From: an uncultured Pseudomonadales bacterium
GTDB lineage: Bacteria > Patescibacteriota > Microgenomatia > UBA1400 > PJMF01
Reading direction: 5' to 3'
NCBI GenBank assembly: GCA_964648715.1
Contig: CAZYNM010000001.1
Span: 16,040-80,039, forward strand
DNA length: 64,000 nucleotides
Both the position numbers and the translations under genes were made by a program. Position 1 is the stretch's first letter, and every line of letters begins with the position of its first letter. A model generated the notes under the pieces. That model saw only the letters and a program-made list of their open reading frames with translations, was not told where the DNA came from and ran no database searches. Below, one piece after another: positions 3,901 to 59,913 of this stretch.

Positions 3901-4878
3901 GATGCAACCGTCATGATGAATCACGCAGGCATGAGCACGCATGAATATCACCAAGGTGATCAAGTTGTTGTGATAGACTCCAACGTCCATACTGTCGCAG
4001 ATCTGCAAGCCTTGCACGCGAATCACCCAGAAGCACAGGGGTATGTCTTCTCTGACACTGCCATTGGGCGCATTGCTGAGTTTTACAAGCAAGCAGCACA
4101 AACACCTGCAGATCACAGAACGCCACTTCAAGAAGACGTGATGCGACATTTCACGGGAGGAACCTCTGGTGAAGAACTTGGTAAACATCCTGCTGCTGTT
4201 GAGGCACTCCTCAAGATTGCCAACGGAGAAACAGTGGATGGCAGTAAGCACATTATTGGTGGCGAGCATGTCGCCGACACCACTGTACATGCTACTACTG
4301 TATCTACTGCAGAAGCCCAACCAGTTGCGGAAGGTGGTGCAAAAGAACTTCTAGATGCTGCTATTGAACAGTACAAGCTGGATCTCAAGCACCCGCTAGC
4401 CGCTCAAGGCGTTATTGATCACTTCATGCATGAAGTCCCTAACAATACGGTTGATCATCCAGAACGGATTGCGCTCTTTGTTGATAACGTCTGGGGTAAA
4501 TGGGTGGATGCCTGTCACACGCTCAACCTGGACCCAATGAAAGCTAATCCAAAAATTGTGGACTATGTCGCCAATCCAGGATATCAAGGTAATGATCTGC
4601 TCACAGTCTCACCAGTACGTGCGGTTATGATTGAATATATCCAGCATGGAAATAGCATGAGTGAGCTTGGTATTACTCGTGGAGCAAATGAGCATACTTT
4701 TCTGAATCTAGATACGGTGCATGGTGTTCTGGCAAAAGTAGATGATAATCCGCTTATTGCCCAACTCATGGCAAACAACGGTGTAGATTCTGCGATTGGT
4801 CAACTCAATATAGAAGATATATTTGGCAATGACGCTGCCGACTATTATAAGAGAGTACAGAACAAGCAAGTACCGTAA
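910..4878 (+). CDS. giant hypothetical protein (1322 aa): acidic N-terminal region, central hydrophobic multi-helix segment, Thr/Gln-rich repeat region, unknown C-terminal domain
   Basis: Long uninterrupted ORF with coding-like composition; no signal peptide; hydrophobic block around aa 640-740 (AFLLGAATGVATDILLYV...GLGAYGLFWVL); in-frame 60-nt tandem repeat. Confidence 0.6.
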   Translation: MTEAHNNSAAEVAQQLAQELLKQTGAADEPQADPIGKSKEVKDAGAQQKAELIQNRIQTGELMNDLPGTVALAREPAVAALLKKMLTPADHQTITDLIQQFDGAPAEEHKDPTVTSAPRPEKTKQVAPPSSHDAAPQNHENEHADDQEEEEAEVERIASPFDRLGRRGMVRRINEAIAADAAHQVFVDRNIDVTRTHAYQMNEAWDNRDNPEIMAQILTDALANALDLRIPRNVRGAERATQAAENWTIATRLAERIVNIEANPEPRRGVAALTEGIRNRVARGFRGALDALGRFYNRAVEANAGTVRGVDIVPVVSRDVQRAQATAPEREFTPEDRTRFEAFVEHIRDEKVKKNVATQLRKLRTENAIPVVDESDAAADAVEALTPEQVSQRQHVLDLISDAFAYLKDLNFDPDLEDEDMALENPDDILALLEILKELNITIDSAKKKKNVRTVDEFMPVAPVVPEDDAEEPADDGAPESEDDAPQKEKKLSLWQRMQFWKRGERDADAFMDGDNAADLNYLQAELSEGLKKLHPKDRNYKTKRGAYVRAIGLLAQVQAGELVEGDDIPRNHKAINQLRKELSVLGIASREAEADAITTDTEAQKNAEKAVDGSDLPPSKKRWLKDKLKAGWNCVKSPAFLLGAATGVATDILLYVTGADHTWKRGVYVAATAFLADGAMSTYVRAKLVSASSMGGPVGLGAYGLFWVLDKGVQIVGPGNVSKFGAGFFGGYELAHIGHHVYDQYSATAATHTVTAGEGQTGTGADSKHSSLTGVEPVKPDHGEKLTDDTPPKANASVDTHTVAPAADAPKVDTTANVQTSGEQHLSGNPLTAQQTNVQASGEQHLSGNPLAQTQTIVVDTEKLQDQAQNWAQQIGAWWRNTVTNAQQNTGAQHHNQQGETNPNAQFMADLNQKRAGVDVTANIHDGSSAADSSADHSNQGSDTMNDAAGNTAGAHGGVETGDLSHVKVVTFDKPYIWEDVKAVTGDNGAVTDAVKDATVMMNHAGMSTHEYHQGDQVVVIDSNVHTVADLQALHANHPEAQGYVFSDTAIGRIAEFYKQAAQTPADHRTPLQEDVMRHFTGGTSGEELGKHPAAVEALLKIANGETVDGSKHIIGGEHVADTTVHATTVSTAEAQPVAEGGAKELLDAAIEQYKLDLKHPLAAQGVIDHFMHEVPNNTVDHPERIALFVDNVWGKWVDACHTLNLDPMKANPKIVDYVANPGYQGNDLLTVSPVRAVMIEYIQHGNSMSELGITRGANEHTFLNLDTVHGVLAKVDDNPLIAQLMANNGVDSAIGQLNIEDIFGNDAADYYKRVQNKQVP
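3361..3480 (+). repeat. 2 x 60-nt imperfect tandem direct repeat inside giant ORF (encodes NVQ(T/A)SGEQHLSGNPL...)
   Basis: aacgtgcagacttctggtgaacagcatctgagtggtaatcc... repeated as aacgtgcaagcttctggtgaacagcacttgagtggcaaccc... Confidence 0.8.
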
Positions 4879-8713: not shown

Positions 8714-10051
8714 ATGGTAGAACAAAAGATATGGACACCATCTGAATTTGTTATAACGCGGGCAAATACATTGGTCACCCAGGTCCTTGAAGTCTTAAAA
8801 CCAACTTCAGATGCCAACAAAGATGAGCAGCTAAGCAGACTAGCAAACGATGCAAACACACTCTTAGAAAAGCTCGCACAGACATTTCGCGATGATCCTG
8901 AATTAATTGATCAAGCTACCATGCAACTACTCGCAAAGTCACTCATCACTGTGCAGATGTGCTTGCTGAGTGAGCACAGATCAACACGATTAGCTGTGCA
9001 TGCCAGTAAAGAACAAGAAAGTGTTGTGCCACAATCAGGTGATGTGATGGAACATGCTCGAGCGTGTCTCATGTTAATTCAAGATGGTGGACCTGAAGCC
9101 GTAGACAAACTTGTGGCTGCTTATAATCACTTTGTTGCTTTGCGTGATAGAGAACACAGTCTAGTCAAATACAGCACTGAGCAGATGCAGTTCTTTGCTA
9201 GAGTGCAGGTGGCGGTACAAACAAAGCTCATTTCAGAAGGTGTAGCTTGTCAATTGGTTGCAGAAAGCATGAAGCCGCTCATTAAATTTGGTGAGAACAC
9301 GCCTCCTGAAAACTTTGAACGCGCAGAGGCAGTTGGGCTCAAGCTAATACATAGAGATATCTCCTACTTACAATCTGTTTTGCGTTCGCATACCTCAGGA
9401 GGAAGTGCATGTGTTCCCCTTTCCTATGCGTACTTACGTATTTTGAGAGACTCGATAACAGATCGTTCCCAGCAAGAAAGTATGGTGCAAGGCATACTTG
9501 CTCAATGGAGAAAAAGGTTTAATGGTAACTGGGTAGGACCATCTGATTTCTTTGATACCACCAGCGACCAGGAAAGGAAATTGGACGCATTAAGCACACT
9601 GGACACCTCGCTCAGCAATACTGGTTTTGACGCTGTGGACTGTATTATCACCTATCTGGAAATGCCTGCGCATACTTTGTCTCGCGGCAAACTGGGGGTG
9701 ACACAGATAGAAATTAGTAGCAAACGAGGTGAACGACAAATGATTATCACCACAGCAGAGGGGCTCAAAGGGAGAGTCATTCACGTTGATGCTCAGAATC
9801 CTTATTGGCAGCAGCACAAAAATGCTATTCCTCGTGTGGGTACCTATGATTACACAGCGGGGCAACATGCTCTTCTAGTTGTTGATGGCAAAAAACTAGC
9901 AGACAACTCCTATGAAATATATGTTATTGATCCCATGACAGGGTGTGTGCTGGCTGTGAACCAATCTGAGTTGATTAGAGTGATACGAAAAACAAGTGAT
10001 GTTTCTCAGCAAAGATTCCAGATTCAGTTAGGAACGTGCACGATTAGCTAG
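8714..10051 (+). CDS. hypothetical protein (445 aa)
   Basis: Long ORF 6 nt after the macro gene, same strand; no recognisable motif. Confidence 0.45.
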   Translation: MVEQKIWTPSEFVITRANTLVTQVLEVLKPTSDANKDEQLSRLANDANTLLEKLAQTFRDDPELIDQATMQLLAKSLITVQMCLLSEHRSTRLAVHASKEQESVVPQSGDVMEHARACLMLIQDGGPEAVDKLVAAYNHFVALRDREHSLVKYSTEQMQFFARVQVAVQTKLISEGVACQLVAESMKPLIKFGENTPPENFERAEAVGLKLIHRDISYLQSVLRSHTSGGSACVPLSYAYLRILRDSITDRSQQESMVQGILAQWRKRFNGNWVGPSDFFDTTSDQERKLDALSTLDTSLSNTGFDAVDCIITYLEMPAHTLSRGKLGVTQIEISSKRGERQMIITTAEGLKGRVIHVDAQNPYWQQHKNAIPRVGTYDYTAGQHALLVVDGKKLADNSYEIYVIDPMTGCVLAVNQSELIRVIRKTSDVSQQRFQIQLGTCTIS

Positions 10052-16186: not shown

Positions 16187-17542
16187 ATGACAGAAAGCAT
16201 ACTTAAATCTACACAAATAGAAGTCCAACCGACCACTGAGCTTAAGAATGTTCTTGCTATGCTAAAGAAGCATGGACATGAGGACCAGACACTTGCCCAG
16301 TGGCTTGCAGAGGAAATTGCGTATGCACTCAAGCGTAATGATACAGTTAATCATTTTAGAGAAACTGTTCAACGCGTTTTGACCAATTTTGGCTTGGGCT
16401 CTGTAGGGGAACTGGAAGGAGAACTCTGCAATTATTACTATCGTGAGTCACTTTCCCCACATGAGCGAAAACGAGTTGTGGAACAGCAGACTCTAAGAAG
16501 AGACATCACCCGTGTATTTTATTCTCATGGAATTGCTAATACTTGGCTTGCCGATTGGGTTGCCGAATTAGCAGAACACAATAGGACACTTCCTACTACT
16601 GGTACAGTAGAAAACTTTCGAGCAAGAGTTATGGAGATTTTAAAGGCGAGTAATGTTTCTTTACCAGCCTTGGTGGATGATCTGGTGGCGGTCTACGAAG
16701 GACGGAAAGTGGTTCCAGCAGCTGATGCACACAATGCGCAACAAAAGAGTGATCCTGCAACATTGAGACAGGAGACTACAGTACGACCATTCCCCTCAAA
16801 AGCATTGGTAAGCTCGCCAGCTTCTGCTAAAGAACAGCCAATAGAATCTGCAGAAGTAGTGGCAGATCCAGATACAGCATTCCGTACTATGGTGAACCAG
16901 CAGATACATGTTGTATTGGAGCGTTTTGGTCGTCCCAATAGAGAGCTCACCAAGTGGCTTGCCGAAGAAGTTGAAACAGCACAAGAGAAAAAATATACAC
17001 GTGAGCAGTTCCAAATTACAGTGGCACGTGTGCTTGAGTATTTTAATCTACACAAGAACAACAGACTGATTACCGCTTTGACTGAATGCTACCTCAATAT
17101 CCCTGCCAAAGATGGATATGAACCTCCAAAACCGGAAGTTGTCCCAGCAGAACCAATGCCTGCTGAGCTCGCTGGTCGTGCAGCAGAATTTGTGGGTCTG
17201 TTATTTGCTTTTCTAAACGTGCGTAATTCAGTATTTGAGGCTCACTTTCGTGAGCTGTATGTTGAGTTACTTACTCGTGACGGCGTTACTGCAACCTATA
17301 TGCAGCAGCGTTTAAAAAACATTTGTGCGATGCATGGCTATGGGAAAGAAGTTCTCATAGAAGAAGCAATTCGTTTCATGCAGGGTTCACCACGCTTCCA
17401 AGAGAGTGCGGTGACTACTCTGCGAGGAGAGCGAGATAAAAAAGCAGCAAAAGAACAGATGCGAGCAGAGCACAAGGATCAGATTGTGCAGCGTCTACTA
17501 AGACCAGTACGCAGGCTTTTTAATGGTCGCCTCTCAACGTAA
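16187..17542 (+). CDS. hypothetical protein (451 aa) with three internal ~100-aa repeats
   Basis: Recurrent blocks LAQWLAEEIAYALKRNDTVNHFRETVQRVLTNFGL / LADWVAELAEHNRTLPTTGTVENFRARVMEIL / LTKWLAEEVETAQEKKYTREQFQITVARVLEYFNL. Confidence 0.45.
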   Translation: MTESILKSTQIEVQPTTELKNVLAMLKKHGHEDQTLAQWLAEEIAYALKRNDTVNHFRETVQRVLTNFGLGSVGELEGELCNYYYRESLSPHERKRVVEQQTLRRDITRVFYSHGIANTWLADWVAELAEHNRTLPTTGTVENFRARVMEILKASNVSLPALVDDLVAVYEGRKVVPAADAHNAQQKSDPATLRQETTVRPFPSKALVSSPASAKEQPIESAEVVADPDTAFRTMVNQQIHVVLERFGRPNRELTKWLAEEVETAQEKKYTREQFQITVARVLEYFNLHKNNRLITALTECYLNIPAKDGYEPPKPEVVPAEPMPAELAGRAAEFVGLLFAFLNVRNSVFEAHFRELYVELLTRDGVTATYMQQRLKNICAMHGYGKEVLIEEAIRFMQGSPRFQESAVTTLRGERDKKAAKEQMRAEHKDQIVQRLLRPVRRLFNGRLST

Positions 17543-18143: not shown

Positions 18144-18161
18144 GAGGCAAAGCAAGTAGAG

Positions 18162-18235
18162 TACCAGGGGAGAGATTCGAACTCTCGACCTTGGGTTTAT
18201 GAATCCCATGCTCTAACCAACTGAGCTACCCTGGC
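18162..18235 (-). tRNA. tRNA with CAT anticodon (elongator Met or Ile2-lysidine type)
   Basis: Reverse complement GCCAGGGTAGCTCAGTTGGTTAGAGCATGGGATTCATAAACCCAAGGTCGAGAGTTCGAATCTCTCCCCTGGTA: acceptor GCCAGGG/CCCTGGT (G1-U72), D arm GCTC...GAGC, anticodon loop TTCATAA, T arm GAGAG-TTCGAAT-CTCTC; CCA not encoded. Confidence 0.8.
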
Positions 18236-18335
18236 ACGATACTGACAGGCAAATTATACCAGATATTCGTACCCTTGGTATTATGAGAGTTCTAGCGTAT
18301 AATCAGGAACGCTTGCAGCGAAAAAAGCAAGTTCG

Positions 18336-18404
18336 CGCGGGGTAGTGTACGGTGCACGTGAGGCTCATAATCTCACAGGCCGGGTTCGACTCCCGGCCCC
18401 GCAA
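18336..18404 (+). tRNA. initiator tRNA-fMet (CAT) with C1:A72 mismatch
   Basis: CGCGGGGTAGTGTACGGTGCACGTGAGGCTCATAATCTCACAGGCCGGGTTCGACTCCCGGCCCCGCAA: acceptor CGCGGGG/CCCCGCA as in E. coli tRNA-fMet, anticodon loop CTCATAA, T arm CCGGG-TTCGACT-CCCGG; short D arm; CCA not encoded. Confidence 0.75.
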
Positions 18405-18416
18405 CATGAGTGTGTT

Positions 18417-29885: not shown

Positions 29886-31808
29886 ATGGCAAATTCAGGA
29901 AAGATCATAGGTATTGACCTTGGTACCACCAACTCGGCAGTTGCTGTTATGGAAGGTGGTTCACCTAAAGTTATTCCTACCCGAGAAGGCAGAAATACTT
30001 TTCCATCAATTGTGGCATTTAAAGGTGATGATATTATTGTGGGTGACCCAGCAAAACGCCAGATGGTCATGAATCCCAAAAAAACCATCAACTCAGTCAA
30101 GCGTTTCATGGGACGCAAACTCAAGGACGACGCTGTAAAGTCAGCCATCAAACATGTGTCCTACTCTGTGGGCGAAGGCAAGCAGGGTATGGCTGTCGTG
30201 GAGATTGATGGTAAACAGTACACTCCACAGGAAATTTCCGCAAAGATCTTGGCCAAAGCCAAGCAAGATGCTGAAAGTTATTTGGGTGGAGAAGTAACTA
30301 GAGCAGTTATCACAGTTCCAGCATACTTTGATGACTCACAGCGCCAAGCGACCAAACAAGCAGGAGAGATCGCTGGTCTTACAGTAGAGCGTATTGTAAA
30401 CGAACCAACGGCGGCTGCACTAGCCTACGGTCTTGATAAAAAAGGAAATAGTACCATCGCTGTTTACGACCTAGGTGGCGGAACTTTTGATATTTCTATT
30501 TTGGAAATTGGTGAAGGTGTCTTTGAAGTTAAAGCCACCAATGGTGATACTTTTTTGGGTGGTGATGACTTTGATAACGTCATCATTGAGTGGATTCTGG
30601 CGGAGTTTAAAAAAGAAACCGGTAAAGATCTTGCTAAAGACCCACAGGCATTACAGCGTATTAAAGATGCAGCAGAAAAAGCTAAAATAGAACTTTCTAG
30701 CGCTCAAAGTACAGAAATCAATCAGCCATTCATCACGCAGGGTGATGATAGTCAACCACTCCACCTTACCTTGACACTGAGTCGTGCCAAGCTTGAAGAG
30801 TTGGTTGATGAACTTATTAAGAAAACCTTTGGTCCAGTCAAGAAAGCTATGGACGACGCCAAAGTAAAACCCAGCGATATTGCTGAAGTTGTGTTGGTGG
30901 GTGGTATGACCCGTATGCCCAAAGTGGTAGAAGAAGTTAAGAAGTTCTTTGGCAAACAGCCACATCAGGGGGTTAATCCAGACGAGGTAGTAGCTGTTGG
31001 TGCAGCAGTACAAGCAGGTGTGATTGGTGGAGATGTCAAAGATGTTGTCCTCCTTGACGTTACGCCACTTACCTTGGGTCTGGAGACTCTTGGTGGTGTA
31101 CGCACCCCGCTTATAGAGCGTAATACCACGGTTCCTACCAAGAAGTCGCAGGTGTTCTCAACTGCCGCAGATAATCAGACACAAGTTGAGATTAATGTCT
31201 TGCAAGGTGAGCGCGAAATGGCTACAGACAATCGTTCACTTGGCCGCTTTATCCTTGATGGTATTCCTCCAGCACCACGTGGGGTTCCTCAAGTTGAAGT
31301 GACCTTTGATATTGATTCAAACGGTATTTTGCATGTTACTGCCAAAGAAAAGAATACGGGTAAGGAGCAGAAGATTACGATTCAAAACTCTACTAATCTT
31401 TCCAAGGAAGAAGTTGAGAAGATGAAGGCTGAAGCTGAAAAACACGCCGAAGAAGACAAGCAAAAGCGTGAGCTTATTGAAGCAAAAAATCATGCCACCA
31501 GCGTGTCATTTGAGATTGAGAAACAACTCAAAGAATACGGTGACAAACTTGATGCCAAAGACAAAGAATCTATTGAAGAAAATGTGAAAAAGCTCAAAGA
31601 ACTGGCACAAAAAGAAGACGTCACCAAAGCAGAGCTTGATACCGCAACAGAAGAAATGTTCAAGTCTGCACAAAAAATTGGTGAAGCAATGCAGAAAGCT
31701 GGTGCAACACCAGGTGCTACTCCCTCAGGAGAGACCCCTGCTGCTGAAGCTAAAGATGCTAAGGCGGATGAAAAGAAAGATGCCGAAGAAGGCGAAGTGG
31801 TGAACTAA
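29886..31808 (+). CDS. dnaK: molecular chaperone DnaK (Hsp70)
   Basis: [36 protein letters not shown]; C-terminal acidic EEGEVVN. Confidence 0.95.
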
Positions 31809-31835
31809 TCACTGCGAAACAGTGTGATCAATGAA

Positions 31836-31867
31836 AAGCCTGGTGGGCCTGCCCATCAGGCTTTTTT
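31836..31867. terminator. hairpin plus T-run between convergent dnaK and GCS2 genes
   Basis: aagcctggtgggc-ctg-cccatcaggctt followed by TTTTTT. Confidence 0.7.
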
Positions 31868-31887
31868 GTAGGTTAAGGAGTGAAAAA

Positions 31888-33117
31888 CTACACACCAAAT
31901 AGGGTGTTGCTGTCTAGGTGTGTTGCTAGTCGTTTGTAGACCTCAACAATATCAGTGCGTGTTGGTTTAGGAGGTAGTACTCGCATGATGCGTGTTGCTA
32001 AGGTGCCCTGTTCAAGGATCGTCGCGATGGTATGCATCCACGGCTGTTCTGGCATACGCGTTTTGGTTAATTCAAGCAAGTGGTGAAGTATCTCACGGGT
32101 AGTGAAGCGGGCGCCAGAAACACCAAGTGTAGAGAGGTATTCTTGATCGGTGATTCCCGTAGCTTCCGCACTGCGCATGCACTCACGCAATACAGTACCA
32201 AGTTGTTCATGATTGAGTGCTTGTTGAGCAGCAAGCGGTGTAAAAGCTTCTTCTACAAACATTTGTACAATGGCAGTAATGAATTGACATATAGCAAGGT
32301 CTGCACGTGGGCATTCTTGTGCATCAATAAGTCTAATCTCAATGCGTCCCTCTGCAAAGTTCACTCGTGCTCCTCGTGAGTTGAGTGCTGGAGTAGACAA
32401 GACCTTGTCAGGATCAACTGGTGCAATTTGTGCATACAATGGCTCAAGTATTTTGGCGGTATATTCAGCTTCACTCCATGCCGCTTCAGGAACAATGCTC
32501 CCTGTAATGAGTGGATATTTTTCTTGATTGGTTCTGTATACTTCAAGCCGTGAATCAAGAAAACCGGTGTGCGCCCCTTCTAAGAGTGGGGTGCTTGCGG
32601 CCACTGCCGGAATAAGTGGCAAAACTAAGCGGATGGCTGCATGCAAACGAGCAAACTCAGCATCTGTGGCAAAGGAAAAATTAAGGTGTGTACTCTGTAG
32701 ATTAGCCCACCCGTGGCGATAGCAGTTGAAGAGTGTGTGGTAATGTTCATACACTTCATGCCATTGGTGTTGCCATACTACTGTTTCTTTAGTTGGATCC
32801 ATAAAAGGATGCGCACCCGTGGGGAGCAAGCATGCGTGGTGTGGTTCCAGGAGTGCATTGAGAGCTTGAACTTCACTTGCAAACTGATTTGCAAGATCAT
32901 CTAGCCCATTAACCGGGAGTGCAGGACGCACTTCAACCACATGTGCTACCAATTCGTTTGACCAATTAAGGCCAGATGGACGGTTTACCTCATCAGTCAC
33001 CGTACCGTCAGTTGTGCGCAGTACTTGGTCTGAAATAGGCAGTACCTGTAAAGTTTCTTTGTCTACAATCATGTACTCAATTTCTACACCGTATTTAGAG
33101 AAGAGTGAGTACTTCAT
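31888..33117 (-). CDS. carboxylate-amine ligase, glutamate-cysteine ligase family 2 (GCS2/YbdK-like)
   Basis: N-terminal YGVEIEYMIVD matches the GCS2 GVEEEF motif; ~400 aa. Confidence 0.6.
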   Translation of the reverse strand: MKYSLFSKYGVEIEYMIVDKETLQVLPISDQVLRTTDGTVTDEVNRPSGLNWSNELVAHVVEVRPALPVNGLDDLANQFASEVQALNALLEPHHACLLPTGAHPFMDPTKETVVWQHQWHEVYEHYHTLFNCYRHGWANLQSTHLNFSFATDAEFARLHAAIRLVLPLIPAVAASTPLLEGAHTGFLDSRLEVYRTNQEKYPLITGSIVPEAAWSEAEYTAKILEPLYAQIAPVDPDKVLSTPALNSRGARVNFAEGRIEIRLIDAQECPRADLAICQFITAIVQMFVEEAFTPLAAQQALNHEQLGTVLRECMRSAEATGITDQEYLSTLGVSGARFTTREILHHLLELTKTRMPEQPWMHTIATILEQGTLATRIMRVLPPKPTRTDIVEVYKRLATHLDSNTLFGV

Positions 33118-34607
33118 AGAGAAACTTTTTCTTGTCTACTGAGATGTGCCACGCGACGCATAAAAGAAGCAATAATAATCTCATATAGTTTTTGTTTTAG
33201 CACTTGATCTTCAACTCTATTGTCAATGTTGGGGTTATCATTGACCTCAATAACAAGCACATCATCACCAATCTCTTTCAGATCAACGCCATAGAGACCA
33301 TCGCCAATAAGCTCCGTTGCGGAAAGAGCAGCTCTAAGAACTTTTTTGGGTACATCTTCTATTGCCAGCGTCTCATGTTTGCCATCTACCGTAGTTTTAT
33401 TACCCCAATCGTAGATCTGCCAGTGATTCTTTGCCATGTAGTACTTGCACGCAAAAAGTGGTTTGCCATCGAGAACGCCAATGCGCCAATCAAAATCAGT
33501 AGGCATAAATGATTGCGCAATGATGAGATCTGACTCTTCCAGCATTTTCTCCAATTTATTCTTGAGCTCACGACGTGTTGAAACTTTGATAACTCCTTGT
33601 GAAAAAGAACTGTCAGGAAGCTTAAGCACACACGGCAGTCCCACAACCTGTTCAACTTGGTCTATAGTATGTTTATGGACGATCATAGTGGGTGGGGTCG
33701 GGATTTTTGCTTTTGCTAACAGTTCCGCCAAATATACCTTGTTTGAACAGCGCATAATAGAATCGGGGTCATCAATGACAGCAATGCCCTCGGTGAGTGC
33801 CCTACGGGCAAAACGGTACGTATAGTGATTCACCGCAGTAGTGGCACGAATGAACAATGCATCAAACTCTTCAATGCGTGAGTATTCTTGAGGACTCAGC
33901 ACTTCTACGTGGATGTGCTCATCCTCGGCGGCAGTGATGAAGTTTTTTATAGCTTGTTTATTGGAGGGAGGTGCTTTTTCTGTGGGATCAACCAAAATAG
34001 CAAGGTCAAAGATGGGGTTCTCAAGCTTGGGAAGAGCGTGCCTTTTTTTGCGAAAGTATTCATCTGCACAAGCACTCACAAAATTTCTATCTTCATCAGG
34101 GATATCGGTCACCTGAAGAGGTGAAATATTTTGTAAGATCCAGCGCTTATTAAACACAAACTGTGCTTTGAAAAGTGGTGTCTGGAAGAGACTATACAAC
34201 TCACGACTGAGCTCATCATAACTATCTGCAAAGTTTTTACCAAAATAGACAGAGAGTGTAAACTCTGTTGATTTAATACGTCGTAAACTTTTTTGAAAAA
34301 GCGAATCCAGCTCATCAGAGATGGAACGAATAATGGTGCGTGATTTGAAGTCTTGGATAGTGCTAATTTCAGGAATGACACGATGGCCGCGAGCTTCGGC
34401 TAGAAGTGATACGTAATACCCTAGGGTTTGGTACCGGTATGAACTGCATAAATTAAAAATTCGCACAGAGGAGAGCTGACTATATTTAGGATTGGTGAGG
34501 TACTCACGTGCGGAGATAACAGGGACTTGTTGAGAAAGTTGCCAGCGGTCAGGATTGTTGACCACGATGATGTTGTGCATATACGTGCTAGAGGTACAGG
34601 ACAGCAT
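33114..34607 (-). CDS. RimK-like ATP-grasp ligase with N-terminal RLAN-type domain
   Basis: C-terminal half: GLPCVLKLPDSSFSQGVIKV, DLIIAQSFMPT, GVDLKEIGDDVLVIEVNDNPNID (ATP-grasp E..N motif); ~250-aa N-terminal extension as in RLAN-ATP-grasp proteins; stop overlaps GCS2 start. Confidence 0.55.
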   Translation of the reverse strand: MLSCTSSTYMHNIIVVNNPDRWQLSQQVPVISAREYLTNPKYSQLSSVRIFNLCSSYRYQTLGYYVSLLAEARGHRVIPEISTIQDFKSRTIIRSISDELDSLFQKSLRRIKSTEFTLSVYFGKNFADSYDELSRELYSLFQTPLFKAQFVFNKRWILQNISPLQVTDIPDEDRNFVSACADEYFRKKRHALPKLENPIFDLAILVDPTEKAPPSNKQAIKNFITAAEDEHIHVEVLSPQEYSRIEEFDALFIRATTAVNHYTYRFARRALTEGIAVIDDPDSIMRCSNKVYLAELLAKAKIPTPPTMIVHKHTIDQVEQVVGLPCVLKLPDSSFSQGVIKVSTRRELKNKLEKMLEESDLIIAQSFMPTDFDWRIGVLDGKPLFACKYYMAKNHWQIYDWGNKTTVDGKHETLAIEDVPKKVLRAALSATELIGDGLYGVDLKEIGDDVLVIEVNDNPNIDNRVEDQVLKQKLYEIIIASFMRRVAHLSRQEKVSL

Positions 34608-34664
34608 TATACACTAGTTTACTGGTCTGCAAGAGTGATATCTATGGTATGCTATGACTACTAT

Positions 34665-35348
34665 ATGGAACCTACATTATCAGTTATAGTTCCTGTGTAC
34701 AATGAAGAAAAAACAGTGGCTGAAGTCTTGAAACGACTTCTCAAAGTTTCCATTGTTGATGAGATCATTGTGGTAGACGATGGCTCTCATGATGACACTG
34801 AAATAAAAGTGCGGAGTGTCAAAAGCAAGAAAATTACCTACTTCAAAAAAGACAATGGTGGAAAAGGTAGTGCTATTCAGTATGGATTAACCCAAGTAAC
34901 TGGAACTCACGTACTTATTCAAGACGCAGACCTAGAATATGATCCAGAAGACATCCCTACTTTATTTGAACCTATCCAGCGTGGTCGAGTTGAAATTGTA
35001 TATGGTTCACGTTTTTTGGGGCCACATCTCAACTTACTTTTTTGGCATCGCTTAGGTAATCACTTGCTAAATGTTGCGGTAAATATTTTGTTTAATACAA
35101 CACTGTCTGACATGGAAACATGTTACAAATTATTGCCAACAGGTGTGTTCCGTTCGCTCAATATAACCTCTAATAATTTTGATATTGAACCAGAAATCAC
35201 CTGCAAACTTTTGTTGCAAGGATACAAGATCTACGAAGTTCCTATTAGTTACATCGGGCGAGATTTTAGTGAGGGTAAGAAGATCACCTGGAGAGATGGT
35301 ATTAGTGCATTACGAACAATTATTGGTTTACGCGTAGGTATGAACTAA
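34665..35348 (+). CDS. GT2-family glycosyltransferase (GtrB/DPM-synthase-like)
   Basis: LSVIVPVYNEEKT, VVDDGSHDDT, LIQDADLEYDPEDIP motifs; the supplied ORF start (34527) overlaps the upstream gene, so start moved to ATG 34665 (ATG 34644 is an alternative). Confidence 0.65.
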   Translation: MEPTLSVIVPVYNEEKTVAEVLKRLLKVSIVDEIIVVDDGSHDDTEIKVRSVKSKKITYFKKDNGGKGSAIQYGLTQVTGTHVLIQDADLEYDPEDIPTLFEPIQRGRVEIVYGSRFLGPHLNLLFWHRLGNHLLNVAVNILFNTTLSDMETCYKLLPTGVFRSLNITSNNFDIEPEITCKLLLQGYKIYEVPISYIGRDFSEGKKITWRDGISALRTIIGLRVGMN

Positions 35349-35375: not shown

Positions 35376-37715
35376 ATGCACTTTTTTCAGCAAGCAAAGG
35401 TACGAGAATGGGGTGGAATAACGCTTGTTTGTATTCTCTTGCTTTTCGCACGTTTTTATCCATTTATCTTAGGAAAAACACTGTTTTTTGGAGATAACTA
35501 TTCACTCATGGTCCCAGCTAAAGTATTTACTGCAACGGCAATTCGCGCTGGTGAAATGCCCTTTTGGAACCCGTACCTTTTTGGTGGTCTCAATTGGATT
35601 GGTGATATTAATTTTTCCACTGTTTATTTTTCAACTTTTTTCTTTGTGCTATTTGATACTGTTGCTGCATTTAATTTCACCATCGTCAGTCACTATGTAA
35701 TTACCTTTGTAGGTATGTATATACTTATGCGTACCTATCAGGACAGAATCGTTTCCTGTACGATAGCTGCATTGTGGATGTTCTCCACACAGTTTGCAGG
35801 AGCAACCAACAATCTCTCAACATTGCAATCAATGGCTTGGTTTCCATGGATTATATGGGCTGGTCTCAACGTTCATAGGACATATTTTAGGAAAATAACT
35901 TTTGGTTTGTTGGTGACACTCCAATTTTTGGCTGGATACCCACAACATGTAGTGTATGCAGTCCTTACTGTAGTTATACATAGTTTGCTTAGTAGCTCAC
36001 TTTCGTGGAAACGATGGCTGACAGGCTGGGTAGTAACGGGCATTGTTGTTGTTTCTATGGCAACCGTTGCATGGCTGCCTTTTGCCCAAGCACTCTTGCA
36101 GTCAACACGTATGGAACAAACAACAGTGCAAGCACAAACAGGATCTCTTCATCCTGTAATGATAGTAAAAGCTATTCTTTCGTATGCTTTTGATAATCCC
36201 AGCAAAGGGATAAAGTGGGGACCTGCTTGGAACGGGCAACCCAATATGGTTTGGAATATCAGTAGCATTGGGTTAGTAGTACTCATATTATCCCTGATGC
36301 AAGGAGGCCTGTGGCATAAGAAAGTGCGTGTTTTTGCAGGGATTGCACTGGTATCTCTTATCTTATCCTTTGGTGCCTATCTACCGGGGTATGAATATCT
36401 ACAAAAAGCAGTACCATTTTTGCGCATTGGTAGATACCCAAGTATGGTACTCATTGTGACACAGTTGTATCTTTTGCTGTGGCTAGGGAATGTGGTCCGT
36501 TCTGTACTGATGCCGCGCAGATTGGCGCACCTAGTTGGATGGGTGGCTGCTGTGAGCGCGTTTCTTGTTGGGCTACAGTGGCTATGGATTAAGCGTGCTC
36601 CCACGCAGTGGTGGTCAACTTTAAACGAAGTTGCTCAAGGAAGTCTCACGAAAAGTACATTCCACACACTGGCTCGTGATGTGCAGATTGCAAATATGAT
36701 TAGTGAAAATATTTTTGTTGTTGGATGTGTACTCTCACTTGGTATGTGGGCAGCATACAAAAAAAAGTTTTTTATTCTCTCTATGCTAATGATCTTTGAG
36801 TGCTGGTATAGCACGCAAGCGAACTTTCTTTTTGCTCCCTCTGAAATCTACCCATCCAGTAGAGAGCCAAGTGTGATTGTTCAGCAACAAGATGAAACAC
36901 TTTTTTCGAAACTATCAGAGACTCAGTACAGGGCACTAACAAGAGCTAGTAATAAACCATACAGTGATTTTGGCAGTTACTGGGAAGCACTGGTAGTGCG
37001 CGCCCCATTCTCTGATTCATTTGTTAACGAGAATGAATTACAAACATATACACGTCTCAAGAATCTACGTGATACATTTGCCCCCGATTGGCATCTGCGT
37101 TGGAACATTCGTTTTATTAATGGTTACACAGCGTTACTGCCCCAAGACTTTGCACATATTTGGCAGCGATCGTATGAGCAACCACGCATTAACTTTATTT
37201 CTTCGGTAGATCCTAACGATGGAGAACAACAACTACTACTCAAAAAATGGGCGGTAAAGTATTACCTGGTAGATTCTTCATATCCATTGTATGGTGAAGT
37301 ATTCACTTCACAACCAGTTGCTTCACAAGGTGCGTTACTCTTGTACGAAATTCCTGGAGCACTTCCTCGTTTTAGAGGCAGCGAACAACCTATTGAGCTC
37401 AAAGAAGTGCAAGAGAAAACATCTTCCCAAAGAGTGACTGTTGATTCCCCTCGTGCACAAGATCTCATCATTGCCGATCGGTATGATGAGCAGTGGGTGG
37501 GGAAAGTAAATGGAAGACCACAGCAAATTCATCTTAAAGACGGCATGCGAAGTATAGAGATTCCAGCCGGAAGTAGCACCGTTGAGTTGTCATTTGTGCC
37601 AGTCTGGTTTTATCGTGGCATATGGATCACTATGCTTAGTAGCATGGTTTGGTTAGTTGTGGGGGTGATTAGCACTCAGAAGTGGATAGTGCTTAACAGA
37701 ATGTTGGGTAAGTGA
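35376..37715 (+). CDS. large polytopic membrane protein, probable GT-C fold glycosyltransferase (YfhO/ArnT-like)
   Basis: 779 aa; ~12-14 predicted TM helices in the N-terminal 480 aa, then a ~280-aa soluble domain and a C-terminal TM; sits directly after a GtrB-like GT2. Confidence 0.4.
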   Translation: MHFFQQAKVREWGGITLVCILLLFARFYPFILGKTLFFGDNYSLMVPAKVFTATAIRAGEMPFWNPYLFGGLNWIGDINFSTVYFSTFFFVLFDTVAAFNFTIVSHYVITFVGMYILMRTYQDRIVSCTIAALWMFSTQFAGATNNLSTLQSMAWFPWIIWAGLNVHRTYFRKITFGLLVTLQFLAGYPQHVVYAVLTVVIHSLLSSSLSWKRWLTGWVVTGIVVVSMATVAWLPFAQALLQSTRMEQTTVQAQTGSLHPVMIVKAILSYAFDNPSKGIKWGPAWNGQPNMVWNISSIGLVVLILSLMQGGLWHKKVRVFAGIALVSLILSFGAYLPGYEYLQKAVPFLRIGRYPSMVLIVTQLYLLLWLGNVVRSVLMPRRLAHLVGWVAAVSAFLVGLQWLWIKRAPTQWWSTLNEVAQGSLTKSTFHTLARDVQIANMISENIFVVGCVLSLGMWAAYKKKFFILSMLMIFECWYSTQANFLFAPSEIYPSSREPSVIVQQQDETLFSKLSETQYRALTRASNKPYSDFGSYWEALVVRAPFSDSFVNENELQTYTRLKNLRDTFAPDWHLRWNIRFINGYTALLPQDFAHIWQRSYEQPRINFISSVDPNDGEQQLLLKKWAVKYYLVDSSYPLYGEVFTSQPVASQGALLLYEIPGALPRFRGSEQPIELKEVQEKTSSQRVTVDSPRAQDLIIADRYDEQWVGKVNGRPQQIHLKDGMRSIEIPAGSSTVELSFVPVWFYRGIWITMLSSMVWLVVGVISTQKWIVLNRMLGK

Positions 37716-40047: not shown

Positions 40048-41520
40048 ATGGCAACACAAAAGAGACCACCAGTTATAACGATCATGGGACACGTTGACCA
40101 TGGTAAGACGTCGCTGTTGGACTACATTCGCAAAACTCGAGTTGCCGCTCGTGAAGCAGGTGGTATTACTCAGCACATTGGTGCCTACCAAGTGGAGTTC
40201 CGCAATGAGAAGCTAACGTTTATTGATACCCCAGGTCATGCTGCGTTTAATAAAATGCGTCAGCGTGGTTCTCAACTGACGGATATTGTGGTACTAGTTG
40301 TAGCTGCAGATGATGGTGTCAAACCTCAGACGATTGAATCAATTAGACACATCAAGGAAGCCGGAGTCCCTGTGGTTGTTGCAATCAATAAAATTGATTT
40401 ACCCAATACATTTCCTGATATGGCCAAAGCACAGCTCGCTGACCAAGGTATCTTGGTACAGGGGTACGGTGGAGATATAGACACAATTGAACTTTCCGCC
40501 AAGACAGGTCAAGGTGTTGATACCTTATTGGAAACCCTGGTGACCATGGCAGAACTCAATGGATACACTGCTGATGCTGATGCTCCTCTCAAGGCGATCG
40601 TTATTGAGTCAGCAAAAGATCCTCGCCGTGGTTCTGTCGCAAGTGTGATTGTGCAACAAGGTACGTTGAGGGTTCGACAAGATATCTTTACTGAAACTGC
40701 TTCTGGAAGAGTGAAGCTTCTCAGTGATGAGGATGGGACACCGTTGCAAACAGTTACTCCTGGAAGTCCTGCAGAAATTATTGGTTTTGAAGAGGTTCCT
40801 GAGGTTGGTGAGACAGTCTGTGATATGGACGCAGAGTATCCGGTTGAGGAAGAAGATGCTGATGAGGAAGCAACAGAAGGCACACGAAGCGTTCGGTTTG
40901 CAGGTCTAGATTTTGGTGCGTTGATTGAAGACAAGCCAAAGCTTAAGCTCATCATTAAAGCAGATGTTTCTGGTACACTTGAGGCAATTACTCAGACGCT
41001 TGATGCAGAAAGTACTGAGCTTTTGGATTCAGGAGTTGGGCAAGTAACTGAAGGTGATGTCGATCTGGCACAAGCAAGTGATGCTATGATTATCGCTTTT
41101 CATATCAAGGTAAGCAAACAGCTCAAGCAGTATGCAAAAGATCATGGTGTGCGCTTGAAGACTTACGATGTCATTTATCATCTCATTGAAGATCTACAAA
41201 AATTGATGCTAAAGCTCATGGATAGTAGTATCGATGAAATTGTGACTGGTGAGGCAGAAGTTATGCAAATATTTGAGATGCGTGGAGATCGCATTGCAGG
41301 CATTCGTGTCAAAACAGGTGAAATCAAAAAACATGATTTGTTACATATGAAACGCGGCGAAGAAGTGTTGTTTAATCCTGTTATTAAATCCATGATGCAC
41401 GGCAAACAAGAAATTGAGAGTGTCAAAGTAAAGAATGAGTGTGGTCTTACTTTTAAGAATCGCAAACTTGATTTCCAGCCAGGTGACATCTTGGTTGCCT
41501 ACAAGATTGCTGATGAATAA
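40048..41520 (+). CDS. infB: translation initiation factor IF-2 (minimal form starting at the G domain)
   Basis: RPPVITIMGHVDHGKTSLLD, DTPGHAAF, NKID; 490 aa, lacks the long N-terminal region. Confidence 0.85.
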   Translation: MATQKRPPVITIMGHVDHGKTSLLDYIRKTRVAAREAGGITQHIGAYQVEFRNEKLTFIDTPGHAAFNKMRQRGSQLTDIVVLVVAADDGVKPQTIESIRHIKEAGVPVVVAINKIDLPNTFPDMAKAQLADQGILVQGYGGDIDTIELSAKTGQGVDTLLETLVTMAELNGYTADADAPLKAIVIESAKDPRRGSVASVIVQQGTLRVRQDIFTETASGRVKLLSDEDGTPLQTVTPGSPAEIIGFEEVPEVGETVCDMDAEYPVEEEDADEEATEGTRSVRFAGLDFGALIEDKPKLKLIIKADVSGTLEAITQTLDAESTELLDSGVGQVTEGDVDLAQASDAMIIAFHIKVSKQLKQYAKDHGVRLKTYDVIYHLIEDLQKLMLKLMDSSIDEIVTGEAEVMQIFEMRGDRIAGIRVKTGEIKKHDLLHMKRGEEVLFNPVIKSMMHGKQEIESVKVKNECGLTFKNRKLDFQPGDILVAYKIADE

Positions 41521-58155: not shown

Positions 58156-58647
58156 ATGCAGAAAATGAACACATATGTGGTAAATGCACAAGAGCACCGT
58201 CATATCACTATTAGTGAAGTTGGGATACATGAGGTAAACTTGATCGGCCCAGCAGCAGAAGCAACAATTGTTGGTAGTTTTCATGCCACTGGCGCAGAAC
58301 AAAAAAGTGTTACTGTTGTTATCAACCACCAAGCTGCACACACACGTTCAAGCACTATTCTTAAAGGAGTCGCGAGTGACTCAGCACAGATTTATTTTAC
58401 GGGTAAGATTAAAGTAGCAGAGCATTGCCCTGACACTAATGCGTTTTTGACTGAGCGTATCCTTCTGTTATCTGACACAGCAGTTGCGCATGCCGTGCCA
58501 GATCTTGAAATACTTACAGATGATGTGAAATGCTCGCATGCAGCAAGTATCTCACACATCCCCGACCAGCACCTTTTTTATCTCATGAGCAGAGGATTGA
58601 CCCGCCAAGCTGCTCAAGACTTGATTGTTGATGGGTTTCTAAAATAA
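58156..58647 (+). CDS. short SufD-like protein (SufB/SufD family C-terminal region only, 163 aa)
   Basis: C-terminal DDVKCSHAASISHIPDQHLFYLMSRGLTRQAAQDLIVDGFL parallels the SufB C-terminus in this window; much shorter than canonical SufD. Confidence 0.55.
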   Translation: MQKMNTYVVNAQEHRHITISEVGIHEVNLIGPAAEATIVGSFHATGAEQKSVTVVINHQAAHTRSSTILKGVASDSAQIYFTGKIKVAEHCPDTNAFLTERILLLSDTAVAHAVPDLEILTDDVKCSHAASISHIPDQHLFYLMSRGLTRQAAQDLIVDGFLK

Positions 58648-59913
58648 GTAATCTCTATTTTTGGCAATAGACCAGATTCCTGGAGGAACTGGAGGGAGTT
58701 TGTGTTGATTGTGTAACGCCGATCTGATCTCGCAGACATAGGAAAAAATTTCTTCATACGAATTGCCTGCCAACTCTAGTTGGGCTGCCAAGGTGCCGTG
58801 GTCACTTTTGGCTGGTTTGTGCATAGTGGATGGAATACGAATGGTTGTACTGGGTATAAGTTCTTTGAGTTCTTCAAGTTGAGCGTAGGTATGCATTTGA
58901 GTAGAAAAAATGTTTGCTTGACACACTGTGCAGTTTGCTTCATGAAAAGTGAATGCTGCAGAACCCAATGCAACGTCGATAATGGCCTTGCTAATATCAA
59001 AATCATAGGCGGTCTTGTAGAGAAAACGGAAGGTATATGCCGCCCGTGAATTAATTTCAATCAGCACTGGTTTACCTTCAATAATCCAGTACTCAACGTT
59101 AAAAAACGTGTGATCAAGACCAATAGTTTTTATATCACTGCATGTTTGTGCCAAGAGTGCCCCCTGCATAGGGGCAGGAAGCCTAGAAGGGGAACTAAAG
59201 TTGTCAAAAAGAGTGTAATCACCCATAGGAAAGTTGGTATCAGTGATGAAGAGTGGCGTCACATGCCCGGCTTGTACGTATCCTTCTACGGTCACTTGTG
59301 GTGCGTGAATAAGTGGCTCAATAGTCATGGCATCGATGCATGCTTCTGGATACCGTGTGGCCAGTGAAGTATGTTTGAGTACTTCGTATATGGGAGCATT
59401 TAAGACAGGTAACTTCTTGTGTAATTGTGGGAGTACTCTCTCTATATCAGCTGGCGTATGAGCTTCAAAGCCGAGAGTCCCAAAAGAAGAATAGGGTGCT
59501 TTTAGATAACAAGGGAGTTTTGCTTTGGGGAAAGTGTCCCAGATATTCCACAGTTCTGATGACACTGCACAGTGTGTTTTTACTTTGGTGAGCTGTTTAT
59601 GCAAAGCTAGAAAAATACTCTCTACCGATGATCCTGGCAGATGCAGTTGCTCATTGAGATACGCTGCAATTAATGATCCCAAATCATTTTCACTCACGAC
59701 TGCTGCAATACAGTGCTCTCGGCAGTATGAAAGGCAAAATGCAAGAAATTCTGCATCTGGATATGGGCTGGGACCAGTCGCTTCTACAGAAAAAGTAATG
59801 TGATGCAATGTGAGATGAGCAGAGCGTTTCTCCACAGCAATAGGAGGACGCCTAACGGTCCCAGTACTTTTTGCTATGCGAAGAAGTGAAGTCATGATGA
59901 GTGTCTGTCCCAT
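58639..59913 (-). CDS. ATP-grasp family ligase (unknown substrate)
   Basis: VEYWIIEGKPVLIEINSR (ATP-grasp E.N motif) and overall ~420-aa three-domain layout; start uncertain (Met at 59913 or 59895); the longer ORF to 60054 would overlap sufS. Confidence 0.5.
   Translation of the reverse strand: MGQTLIMTSLLRIAKSTGTVRRPPIAVEKRSAHLTLHHITFSVEATGPSPYPDAEFLAFCLSYCREHCIAAVVSENDLGSLIAAYLNEQLHLPGSSVESIFLALHKQLTKVKTHCAVSSELWNIWDTFPKAKLPCYLKAPYSSFGTLGFEAHTPADIERVLPQLHKKLPVLNAPIYEVLKHTSLATRYPEACIDAMTIEPLIHAPQVTVEGYVQAGHVTPLFITDTNFPMGDYTLFDNFSSPSRLPAPMQGALLAQTCSDIKTIGLDHTFFNVEYWIIEGKPVLIEINSRAAYTFRFLYKTAYDFDISKAIIDVALGSAAFTFHEANCTVCQANIFSTQMHTYAQLEELKELIPSTTIRIPSTMHKPAKSDHGTLAAQLELAGNSYEEIFSYVCEIRSALHNQHKLPPVPPGIWSIAKNRDYLF

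Follow-up and report, generated by a model that had tools for sequence, protein, structure and literature searches.

The window analyzed here, a 64,000-nucleotide stretch of DNA, contains two adjacent minus-strand genes predicted to encode amide ligases, and these lie between dnaK and a glycosylation gene, as originally predicted. Both open reading frames were confirmed, at 31888-33117(-) and 33114-34607(-). The features of the locus are listed below in order of position.

29886-31808, plus strand: dnaK, on one flank of the pair
31888-33117, minus strand: GCS2-family (YbdK-like, glutamine-synthetase fold) carboxylate-amine ligase, 409 aa, matching Pfam PF04107
31892-31907, minus strand: hairpin resembling a terminator at the stop codon of GCS2, with a T-run after it, from a hairpin scan
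33114-33117, minus strand: ATGA stop/start overlap of the RLAN gene and the GCS2 gene, reading ...tct cta TGA over ATG aag tac
33114-34580, minus strand: RLAN plus RimK-type ATP-grasp ligase, 488 aa, with the reading frame open to an ATG at 34607 (497 aa)
33219-34004, minus strand: pre-ATP-grasp and ATP-grasp catalytic module, residues 193-454 of the 488-aa protein (TIGR00768, E 6e-21)
34074-34511, minus strand: RLAN domain, residues 24-169 of the 488-aa protein (PF14401, E 3.8e-48)
34606-34632, minus strand: promoter-like TTGCAG - 15 nt - TATAAT, 5' of the ATG at 34580, a putative element read by eye
About 34662 to 35348, plus strand: GT2 glycosyltransferase, on the other flank of the pair

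The overlapping stop and start that had been described for these genes correspond to ATGA at 33117-33114, and this overlap, which is identical in two related loci (L061 and L064), couples the two genes translationally. As judged from sequence, the host is a Microgenomates (Patescibacteria/CPR) bacterium; the window DnaK is 80-86% identical to proteins from Pacebacteria and Woesebacteria. The interval between dnaK and the GT2 gene is a variable slot, with different cargo in relatives that have equal flanking synteny, and the GT2 gene itself is conserved. Judging by identity patterns alone, the ligase pair probably reached this slot in Microgenomates by horizontal transfer; its GC and GC3 are within the normal range of the window and give no compositional sign of transfer.

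We consider the ATG at 34580 (MHNIIVVNNP..., 488 aa) to be the likely start of the RLAN gene, rather than the ATG at 34607, because the database copy of the protein (P0001) and its homologues measure 484-491 aa and because the upstream ATG falls partly within a TATAAT box at 34611-34606. The TTGCAG/TATAAT element was missed by an automated scan because its 15-nt spacer is outside the 16-18 nt range of that scan. At the other end of the pair, the terminator-like hairpin is a weak candidate, as hairpins of this kind are no more numerous in the region than expected from shuffled sequence.

HMM searches of the two proteins returned exactly the expected GCS2, RLAN and RimK-type ATP-grasp families. 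Within the 497-aa reading frame, RLAN occupies residues 33-178 (PF14401, 163.4 bits versus a cut-off of 25), the RimK-type ATP-grasp domain lies C-terminal to it at residues 288-463 (PF08443, E 1.1e-10), and the TIGR00768 match spans residues 202-463 with the pre-ATP-grasp subdomain included. The C-terminal half is therefore RimK-type, as proposed. The N-terminal extension matches RLAN alone and no other family, which supports the interpretation of the locus as an amidoligase pair, and its size is about 190-200 aa instead of the ~250 aa first estimated. Across 33 homologues, RLAN has an invariant block (R40, N43, Y50, G54, Y55, Y56, V57, S58, L59, A61, R64, P70, T74, Q76 and D77), and the ATP-grasp invariants are K320, Q356, D364-W365-R366, D433, E445 and N447. 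Residues K320, Q356, D433, E445 and N447 align with RimK/LysX, and R366 is aligned to an Arg of Pseudomonas RimK (chain position 189); RimK R189 binds the terminal acidic residue of the acceptor (PMC10375531). The ligase has the features that mark an active enzyme in the ATP-grasp superfamily (the ATP-binding Lys, the hinge, the Mg-binding D/E/N triad and the fold) and is predicted to be one.

The AlphaFold2 model of the RLAN-ATP-grasp protein has a mean pLDDT of 82.8, and the best solved structures for it are ArgX (Foldseek E 5.6e-16), LysX, RimK and Ddl, all matching the C-terminal ~300 aa. A sequence search of the PDB with the RLAN domain gave no relative, and Foldseek searches with an RLAN-only model returned only ATP-grasp enzymes, weakly (best E 6e-4, TM 0.3-0.4, rmsd about 13 Å). 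An internal duplication as the origin of RLAN is no more than a lead: the hhalign comparison of the N- and C-terminal halves was not significant (E 0.49) and the Foldseek similarity was weak. The protein did not reach the curated cut-offs for RimK (TIGR00768, 75 versus 143.4; NF007764, 31.9 versus 331), for LysX/ArgX (TIGR02144, 68.6 bits versus 275.6) or for GshB (NF003573, 28 versus 272; NF009110, 52.8 versus 408).

The 409-aa product of the second gene, which contains KYGVEIEYMIVD, matches Pfam PF04107 (E 2.9e-26, 92.9 bits versus a cut-off of 21, 276 of 291 profile positions) and has the predicted GVEIEY sequence, an E-x-E metal motif, at residues 10-15. Among 25 RLAN-linked GCS2 orthologues, 93 positions show a conservation of at least 95%; the window protein keeps every one of them, including E12 and E14 of GVEIEY, E55, H59, E62, H144, R248, E260 and R262. 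This protein scored under the cut-off of every curated YbdK/GshA model (TIGR02050 for the YbdK family, 60.9 versus 176.4; the GshA equivalogs NF010039, 63.7 versus 371, and TIGR02048, 36.3 versus 249), and its match to the YbdK structure had an E of only 6e-4.

The genomic context of the family was tallied over 60 loci, the window plus 59 related genome loci that were retrieved with peptide patterns from the window RLAN protein and hence are no random sample. In 25 of the 60, the next gene after RLAN encodes a GCS2 ligase; as 24 of these are loci other than the window, from several phyla, the pairing is no accident. In about 20 of the 25, the two ligase genes have a C39-like peptidase (PF13529) and an FGase (PF05013) as flanking genes. 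Elsewhere, by its domain content, the pair is part of a widespread four-gene cassette predicted to encode a C39-like cysteine peptidase, the RLAN-RimK ATP-grasp ligase, the GCS2 ligase and an FGase-family amidohydrolase, and we recovered this cassette complete in Ignavibacteria, Legionella, Gammaproteobacteria and Bacteroidota. The window has the arrangement by which the cassette is recognized, with GCS2 next after the RLAN-ATP-grasp gene and on the same strand. In tblastn searches of the 64-kb window, neither the upstream C39-like peptidase (all cluster-2 peptidases as queries, best E 0.07) nor the downstream FGase (all cluster-3 proteins, best E 0.1) was found. Two-gene versions made up of the ligases only are present in the window, in L001 (85%/68% protein identity to the window pair, with shared synteny), in L061 (70%/52%, in a different context) and in L011. 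Identity of the RLAN protein falls to about 60% in Bacteroidota, Ignavibacteria, Omnitrophota and Gammaproteobacteria.

In 31 of the 60 loci the partner of the RLAN ligase, fused or adjacent, is a RimI-like GNAT protein that scores at or near the cut-off of the RimI equivalog (87.9 bits versus 86.4) and is at times fused to the C39-like peptidase. The two kinds of partner, GCS2 (25 loci) and GNAT (31 loci), are mutually exclusive, with zero co-occurrence in the 60 loci. Stand-alone copies of the RLAN ligase adjoin amino-acid or peptide transporters. A nearby small peptide or target gene had also been considered; no small substrate-protein gene is conserved beside the pair or the cassette in any lineage examined.

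An operon of RLAN-RimK, GCS2, FGase and papain-like-peptidase genes was reportedly predicted by Iyer, Abhiman, Burroughs and Aravind in 2009 (Mol Biosyst 5:1636). It resembles the window in its RLAN plus RimK-like ATP-grasp architecture and in the GCS2 gene directly after it; it differs in having the peptidase and FGase, whereas the window pair is in a CPR genome with chaperone-gene surroundings. What our analysis adds to the original prediction is that the pair is a reduced form of the four-gene cassette, that its host belongs to the CPR, that it occupies a variable slot and that GNAT is an alternative partner of RLAN.

We tentatively favor, as an interpretation that falls a little short of probable, that this translationally coupled pair of ATP-dependent amide ligases is the ligase core of the four-gene cassette and makes a small glutathione- or NAAG-like peptide. 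Both ligases would turn a carboxylate into an acyl-phosphate and then join an amine to it. GCS2 would act first, producing an N-(gamma-glutamyl)-type amide, that is, an N-capped amino acid; the RLAN-RimK ligase would hold the free carboxylate of this product through R366, the equivalent of RimK R189, and attach one or a few L-glutamates. RLAN, which may have an ATP-grasp-like half-fold, would help as an accessory module in binding the substrate or in assembly. In GNAT lineages an acetyl cap would take the place of the gamma-glutamyl group. Turnover of the product would fall to the two hydrolases where the cassette is complete; the CPR version would make the product only. The order of the reactions is a guess.

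The proposal that the partner N-caps an amino acid, with a gamma-glutamyl or an acetyl group, comes from the GCS2-or-GNAT exclusivity. We favor this capping model because the two partner types mirror known pathways, because stand-alone ligase copies adjoin amino-acid or peptide transporters and because no small substrate-protein gene is conserved beside the pair. Glutathione is made by GshA and GshB, which, like the window genes, combine a GS-fold carboxylate-amine ligase (GCS2-type GshA, with the E-x-E motif seen as GVEIEY) with an ATP-grasp ligase. The Ngg system, with GNAT and ligase functions, makes N-acetylglutaminylglutamine (PMC8070244), and N-acetylaspartylglutamate is made by a RimK homologue (PMC7907349). 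In both Ngg and NAT8L plus RIMKLA/B (NAAG), an N-capping acyltransferase works with a RimK-type/ATP-grasp ligase to give an N-capped dipeptide, an arrangement that the GNAT-RLAN-ATP-grasp fusions parallel; the window differs from these systems in having GCS2 instead of GNAT and in leaving TIGR03103 unmatched. More broadly, and with distinctly less confidence, RLAN-ATP-grasp ligases might make a large and unexplored class of N-capped glutamyl peptides whose caps come from interchangeable GCS2 or GNAT partners, the CPR pair being a minimal hydrolase-free route to a glutathione- or osmolyte-like peptide.

A serious, if somewhat unlikely, rival is protein or peptide tagging, in which RLAN-RimK would extend a specific protein by glutamate(s) attached at its C-terminal acidic residue, RLAN would recognize the target, GCS2 would form a second isopeptide or a cap in the manner of PafA, and, where the cassette is complete, the C39 peptidase and FGase would trim or remove the tag. 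RimK acting on S6 and LysX/ArgX acting on LysW are precedents. The solved relatives nearest to the ATP-grasp half (ArgX, LysX and RimK; LysX/ArgX structures 3vpc, 3vpb, 3vpd and 5k2m are the best matches) have protein C-termini as their substrates, and the alternative partner GNAT is most like RimI, which acetylates protein N-termini; these observations favor tagging and count against the capping model. The inclusion of the protein ligase PafA among GCS2-fold enzymes (PMC7947786) also counts against capping. Tagging is further favored by conservation of the acceptor-binding Arg and by the occasional fusion of the GNAT to the C39-like peptidase. Identity of about 57% across phyla and the invariant RLAN surface would also fit a universally conserved macromolecular target. 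However, no candidate target gene is conserved beside the cassette in any lineage, the 64-kb window has no S6 or LysW-like gene (by approximate queries), and no acidic-tailed small ORF lies near the pair. In addition, scores for the RimK, LysX and ArgX equivalogs are far under their cut-offs, and RimK-family members that act on small molecules exist, namely MptN and CofF, which are among the model matches, and NAAG synthase (PMC7907349). The locus also differs from LysX/ArgX systems in having no lysine/arginine biosynthesis genes nearby.

An ordinary glutathione pathway, with GCS2 as GshA (gamma-Glu-Cys ligase) and the ATP-grasp protein as GshB, has the right folds, weak matches to glutathione synthetase models (PRK12458, 3e-14; PRK05246, 8.8e-07) and also to gshA models, and homologues that some sources label 'glutathione synthase'. 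We consider it improbable: GshA and GshB equivalogs are all far under cut-off (for example 36 versus 249 and 28 versus 272), the ATP-grasp domain is nearer to RimK, LysX and MptN than to GshB, GshB lacks RLAN, and the GNAT partner and the FGase/C39 cassette members are foreign to glutathione synthesis. It is less probable still that the pair is a decaying or functionless remnant of a transferred cassette. Two of four cassette genes are missing and the slot is one whose cargo is replaced in relatives, but both ORFs are full-length with all family-invariant residues, the pair and its overlap are kept at 85%/68% and 70%/52% protein identity, its composition is fully ameliorated, and unrelated lineages (L011, L061) have two-gene versions too. 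We regard it as very improbable indeed that the ligase is a plain RimK, with ribosomal protein S6 as the target of polyglutamylation, beside an unrelated gene. The window ligase shares with the E. coli and Pseudomonas S6 poly-alpha-L-glutamate ligase the ATP-grasp fold (Foldseek E about 1e-15, TM about 0.75 on target), the ATP/Mg residues and the acceptor-binding Arg, but is only about 20% identical to it, has an additional ~190-aa RLAN module, is tightly coupled to GCS2 across phyla and reaches 31.9 bits where the S6-L-glutamate ligase model (NF007764) requires 331; rpsF was not found in the 64-kb window using an approximate E. coli S6 query. The failure to reach curated cut-offs leads us to reject both the plain RimK and the glutathione pathway.

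The RLAN family, which is very common and shows strong sequence conservation (about 57% identity between phyla), has no known product; annotation pipelines label its members merely 'RimK family protein' and 'glutamate-cysteine ligase family protein'. Consistent with the earlier statement that the products are largely uncharacterized, our literature search found no experimental work on the RLAN/PF14401 family and no substrate or product for any member. The GCS2-or-GNAT partner rule provides a concrete, testable hypothesis for the substrate class; apart from this rule, our results are the correct annotation of an already predicted system and not a new type of biology. As the smallest natural version, with two ligases and zero hydrolases in a reduced genome, the window pair would be convenient for heterologous expression and product discovery. 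If the broader reading, with a class of N-capped glutamyl peptides, is true, the pair would be the simplest handle for product identification, and a hydrolase-free CPR peptide route would stand out in a lineage thought nearly devoid of biosynthetic capacity.

A second, orphan ATP-grasp gene had been placed at 58639-59913(-). The long ORF is present, while its assignment to the ATP-grasp family was not borne out by HMMs; it had no Pfam, PDB or PADLOC match and aligned weakly with the ATP-grasp core in hhalign (E 1e-3, probability 22%). Neither ligase protein of the pair matched the PADLOC anti-phage defence models. The RLAN-ATP-grasp family comprises >8000 clusters at 90% identity and about 440-760 at 50% identity, and only 11 records place it on plasmids, most of these being chromids or probable pieces of chromosomes.

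The pair lies between dnaK and a glycosylation gene, as had been predicted, with the following layout:

29886-31808, plus strand: dnaK, one flank of the pair
31888-33117, minus strand: GCS2 ORF, 409 aa
33117-33114, minus strand: ATGA stop/start overlap, read from the sequence as tct-cta-TGA over ATG-aag-tac
33114-34607, minus strand: RLAN-ATP-grasp ORF, 497 aa as an open frame
34074-34511, minus strand: RLAN domain
~34662-35348, plus strand: GT2 glycosyltransferase, the other flank, with a 779-aa membrane protein and then dnaJ beyond

The ATGA bears out the proposed stop/start overlap of two minus-strand genes. The GCS2 protein, with N-terminus MKYSLFSKYGVEIEYMIVD, matched nearly the whole Pfam GCS2 model (E 2.9e-26), and the upstream protein has the expected RLAN-type N-terminus (PF14401, E 3.8e-48, residues 33-178) and RimK-type ATP-grasp C-terminal half (PF08443, residues 288-463). 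The N-terminal extension had been put at ~250 aa; because the span of the RimK-family model TIGR00768 (residues 202-463) already includes the pre-ATP-grasp subdomain, the actual addition to a normal RimK-type ligase is ~190-200 aa. As the database copy of this protein (P0001) is 488 aa long, its homologues are 484-491 aa and start with MxxIVVVNNP, and a TATAAT box (34611-34606) overlaps the upstream ATG of the ORF, the true start of the gene is probably ATG 34580.

Residues K320, Q356, D364-W365-R366, D433, E445 and N447 of the ATP-grasp domain (488-aa numbering) are invariant across 33 homologues and align with ATP/Mg residues of LysX and RimK. R366 aligned with the Arg that occupies chain position 189 in Pseudomonas RimK; in a structural and molecular dynamics study (PMC10375531), RimK R189 was found to bind the acceptor at its terminal acidic residue. 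The AlphaFold2 model of the RLAN-ATP-grasp protein (mean pLDDT 82.8) retrieved ArgX, LysX, RimK and D-Ala-D-Ala ligases as its top solved-structure matches (E ~1e-15, TM ~0.75-0.8 on the target), all confined to the C-terminal ~300 residues. The GCS2 protein retains 93 of the 93 positions conserved at a level of at least 95% in 25 RLAN-linked orthologues, including the E-x-E motif and further Glu/His/Arg residues typical of the glutamine-synthetase fold. Neither protein reached the curated equivalog cut-offs for RimK, LysX, MptN, CofF, GshB, YbdK or GshA, and we rejected a plain RimK since the RLAN-ATP-grasp protein scores under the RimK cut-off. The fold and chemistry of both ligases are clear, but specificity is not transferable from characterised equivalogs.

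No solved relative of RLAN was found by sequence. As a model of RLAN alone (pLDDT 78) retrieved only ATP-grasp enzymes from the PDB (ArgX, PPIP5K/Asp1, ITPK1, PsnB and synapsin), in weak matches (best E 6e-4, TM 0.3-0.4), the domain may be a degenerate half ATP-grasp, consisting of a pre-ATP-grasp plus lid module. When the N- and C-terminal halves were compared as profiles, they aligned collinearly but without significance (E 0.49).

Homologues of the RLAN protein form > 8000 90%-identity clusters, with ~55-60% identity to proteins from Bacteroidota, Ignavibacteria, Omnitrophota and Gammaproteobacteria; at the 50% level, the RLAN domain alone retrieved 757 representatives, of which 439 had E <= 1e-10. 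We retrieved 60 related genome loci and clustered their ORFs, which revealed two architectures. The cassette form, present in Ignavibacteria, Legionella, other Gammaproteobacteria and Flavobacteriia, has an RLAN ligase of 484-490 aa within a co-directional, often overlapping gene set that carries only generic PGAP names:

cassette gene 1: C39-like cysteine peptidase (PF13529), ~235 aa
cassette gene 2: RLAN-ATP-grasp ligase
cassette gene 3: GCS2
cassette gene 4: FGase-family amidohydrolase (PF05013), ~235 aa

The other form pairs the RLAN ligase with a RimI-like GNAT, in three arrangements:

arrangement 1: N-terminal fusion to the RLAN ligase, ~650 aa product
arrangement 2: GNAT encoded just upstream of the RLAN ligase
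arrangement 3: GNAT fused to a C39-like peptidase, for example in the related locus L048 (DUF3335)

Across the window and 59 retrieved loci (n=60; the remaining locus, L060, gave no RLAN ORF), the partner was GCS2 in 25/60 and GNAT, fused or adjacent, in 31/60, with both occurring in 0/60. The 64-kb window holds the two ligases alone, C39 and FGase homologues being absent throughout, and this two-gene form recurs in three related loci:

L001: 85%/68% identity, identical synteny
L061: 70%/52% identity, different neighbourhood
L011: gammaproteobacterial locus

From these data, we conclude that both proteins are ATP-dependent carboxylate-amine ligases, both intact, and that the two are coupled in translation and inherited together across phyla. 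The amidoligase pair of the original prediction was confirmed, and its interpretation supported.

Stand-alone RLAN ligases were also found, next to amino-acid or peptide transporters, and the ligase is rarely plasmid-borne. One P. aeruginosa locus (L068:4902-6491, record NZ_CP133752.1) encodes a stand-alone 529-aa RLAN-RimK protein (42% identity) beside aatJQMP-type glutamate/aspartate ABC transporter genes, pagP and an aminotransferase. We take this protein to be PAO1 PA1345; our literature search found no functional study of a PA1345-type protein.

The gene content of the window is housekeeping (GroEL, FtsH, hrcA-grpE-dnaK, dnaJ, nusA, a short IF-2, PNPase and SufB). Its DnaK shares 80-86% identity with proteins that carry the names Pacebacteria, Woesebacteria or Patescibacteria, which places the host among the Microgenomates-type CPR bacteria. 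The RLAN protein differs from DnaK in this respect: only three or four relatives reach 70% identity, after which identity falls to ~60%, in unrelated phyla. Close relatives share the synteny FtsH ... GT4-GH39-hrcA-grpE-dnaK-slot-GT2-membrane protein-dnaJ, and the cargo of the dnaK-to-GT2 slot (31809-34661 in the window; L066:10930-13550 and L067:10933-14055 in related loci) differs:

relative with DnaK 93% identical: 817-aa tandem ATP-grasp/LAL-type protein, unrelated to the pair
relative with DnaK 86% identical: 993-aa VIT-domain protein

Since syntenic relatives carry other cargo, the pair is cargo of a variable slot, and its acquisition is most simply read as horizontal. The normal GC and GC3 of the pair for the window, and its maintenance in genomes whose GCS2 proteins have diverged to 68% identity, suggest that this acquisition was not recent and that the genes are under selection.

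An association of RLAN, GCS2, FGase and peptidase genes was reportedly predicted in a 2009 comparative-genomics study, and we found no experimental study of the RLAN/GCS2 association in the literature; therefore, the window pair is a reduced member of an already predicted kind, in an unusual host. A defence system was rejected, as PADLOC gave no match for the pair.

The mutual exclusion of GCS2 and GNAT suggests that they do one job, capping an amino group with an acyl residue. We tentatively propose a small-peptide model, somewhat short of an even chance, in which an N-capped amino acid is extended with glutamate. GCS2 would cap the amino group with gamma-glutamyl, GNAT would cap it with acetyl in the lineages that use GNAT, and the RLAN-RimK ligase would then add glutamate at the free carboxylate of the capped amino acid; where the cassette is complete, breakdown of the product would fall to the papain-like peptidase and to the FGase-family enzyme, from a family of N-acyl-glutamate amidohydrolases. 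The main rival, protein or peptide tagging, is favoured by the nearest structures (RimK, LysX and ArgX all act on protein C-termini), by the RimI-like GNAT partner and by the presence of PafA among GCS2-fold ligases. Against tagging, the cassette has no conserved target gene in its neighbourhood in the related loci compared, nor is one visible near the pair in the window; we regard tagging as less likely than the small-peptide model. For the small-peptide model there are known parallels: GshA and GshB make glutathione by a route like the proposed GCS2 cap and ATP-grasp extension, and the proposed GNAT cap and RLAN ligase extension resemble the acetyltransferase plus RimK-type/ATP-grasp ligase routes to N-acetylaspartylglutamate (PMC7907349) and N-acetylglutaminylglutamine (PMC8070244).

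A second ATP-grasp gene had also been predicted, and a long ORF is indeed present:

58639-59913, minus strand: ORF between sufD and sufS, 424 aa, long enough to be real

This ORF had no Pfam, PDB or PADLOC match and aligned weakly in hhalign to ATP-grasp core motifs (LPCYLKAPYSSF, VLIEINSR), so its identity as an ATP-grasp is plausible but unproven. No NCBIfam match at E <= 1e-10 was obtained for ORFs 910-4878 (1322 aa), 5242-7812 (856 aa), 8714-10051 (445 aa) and 16187-17542 (451 aa), and the 779-aa protein (35376-37715), a multi-pass membrane protein by sequence that adjoins GT2 in relatives too, had no match in Pfam (E <= 1e-3) or PADLOC. Positions 62001-64000 have a GC of 0.318 vs ~0.44 elsewhere, few ORFs of at least 50 aa and no Rfam match. 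Two divergent tRNA-Met (CAT) genes lie ~100 nt apart at 18161-18405, the second scoring lower in Rfam (45.5 bits). Finally, IF-2 (40048-41520, plus strand) is only 490 aa long and matched TIGR00487 from position 83 onward only; it seems to be missing the N-terminal part that longer IF-2 proteins have, which would fit a reduced CPR-type genome.
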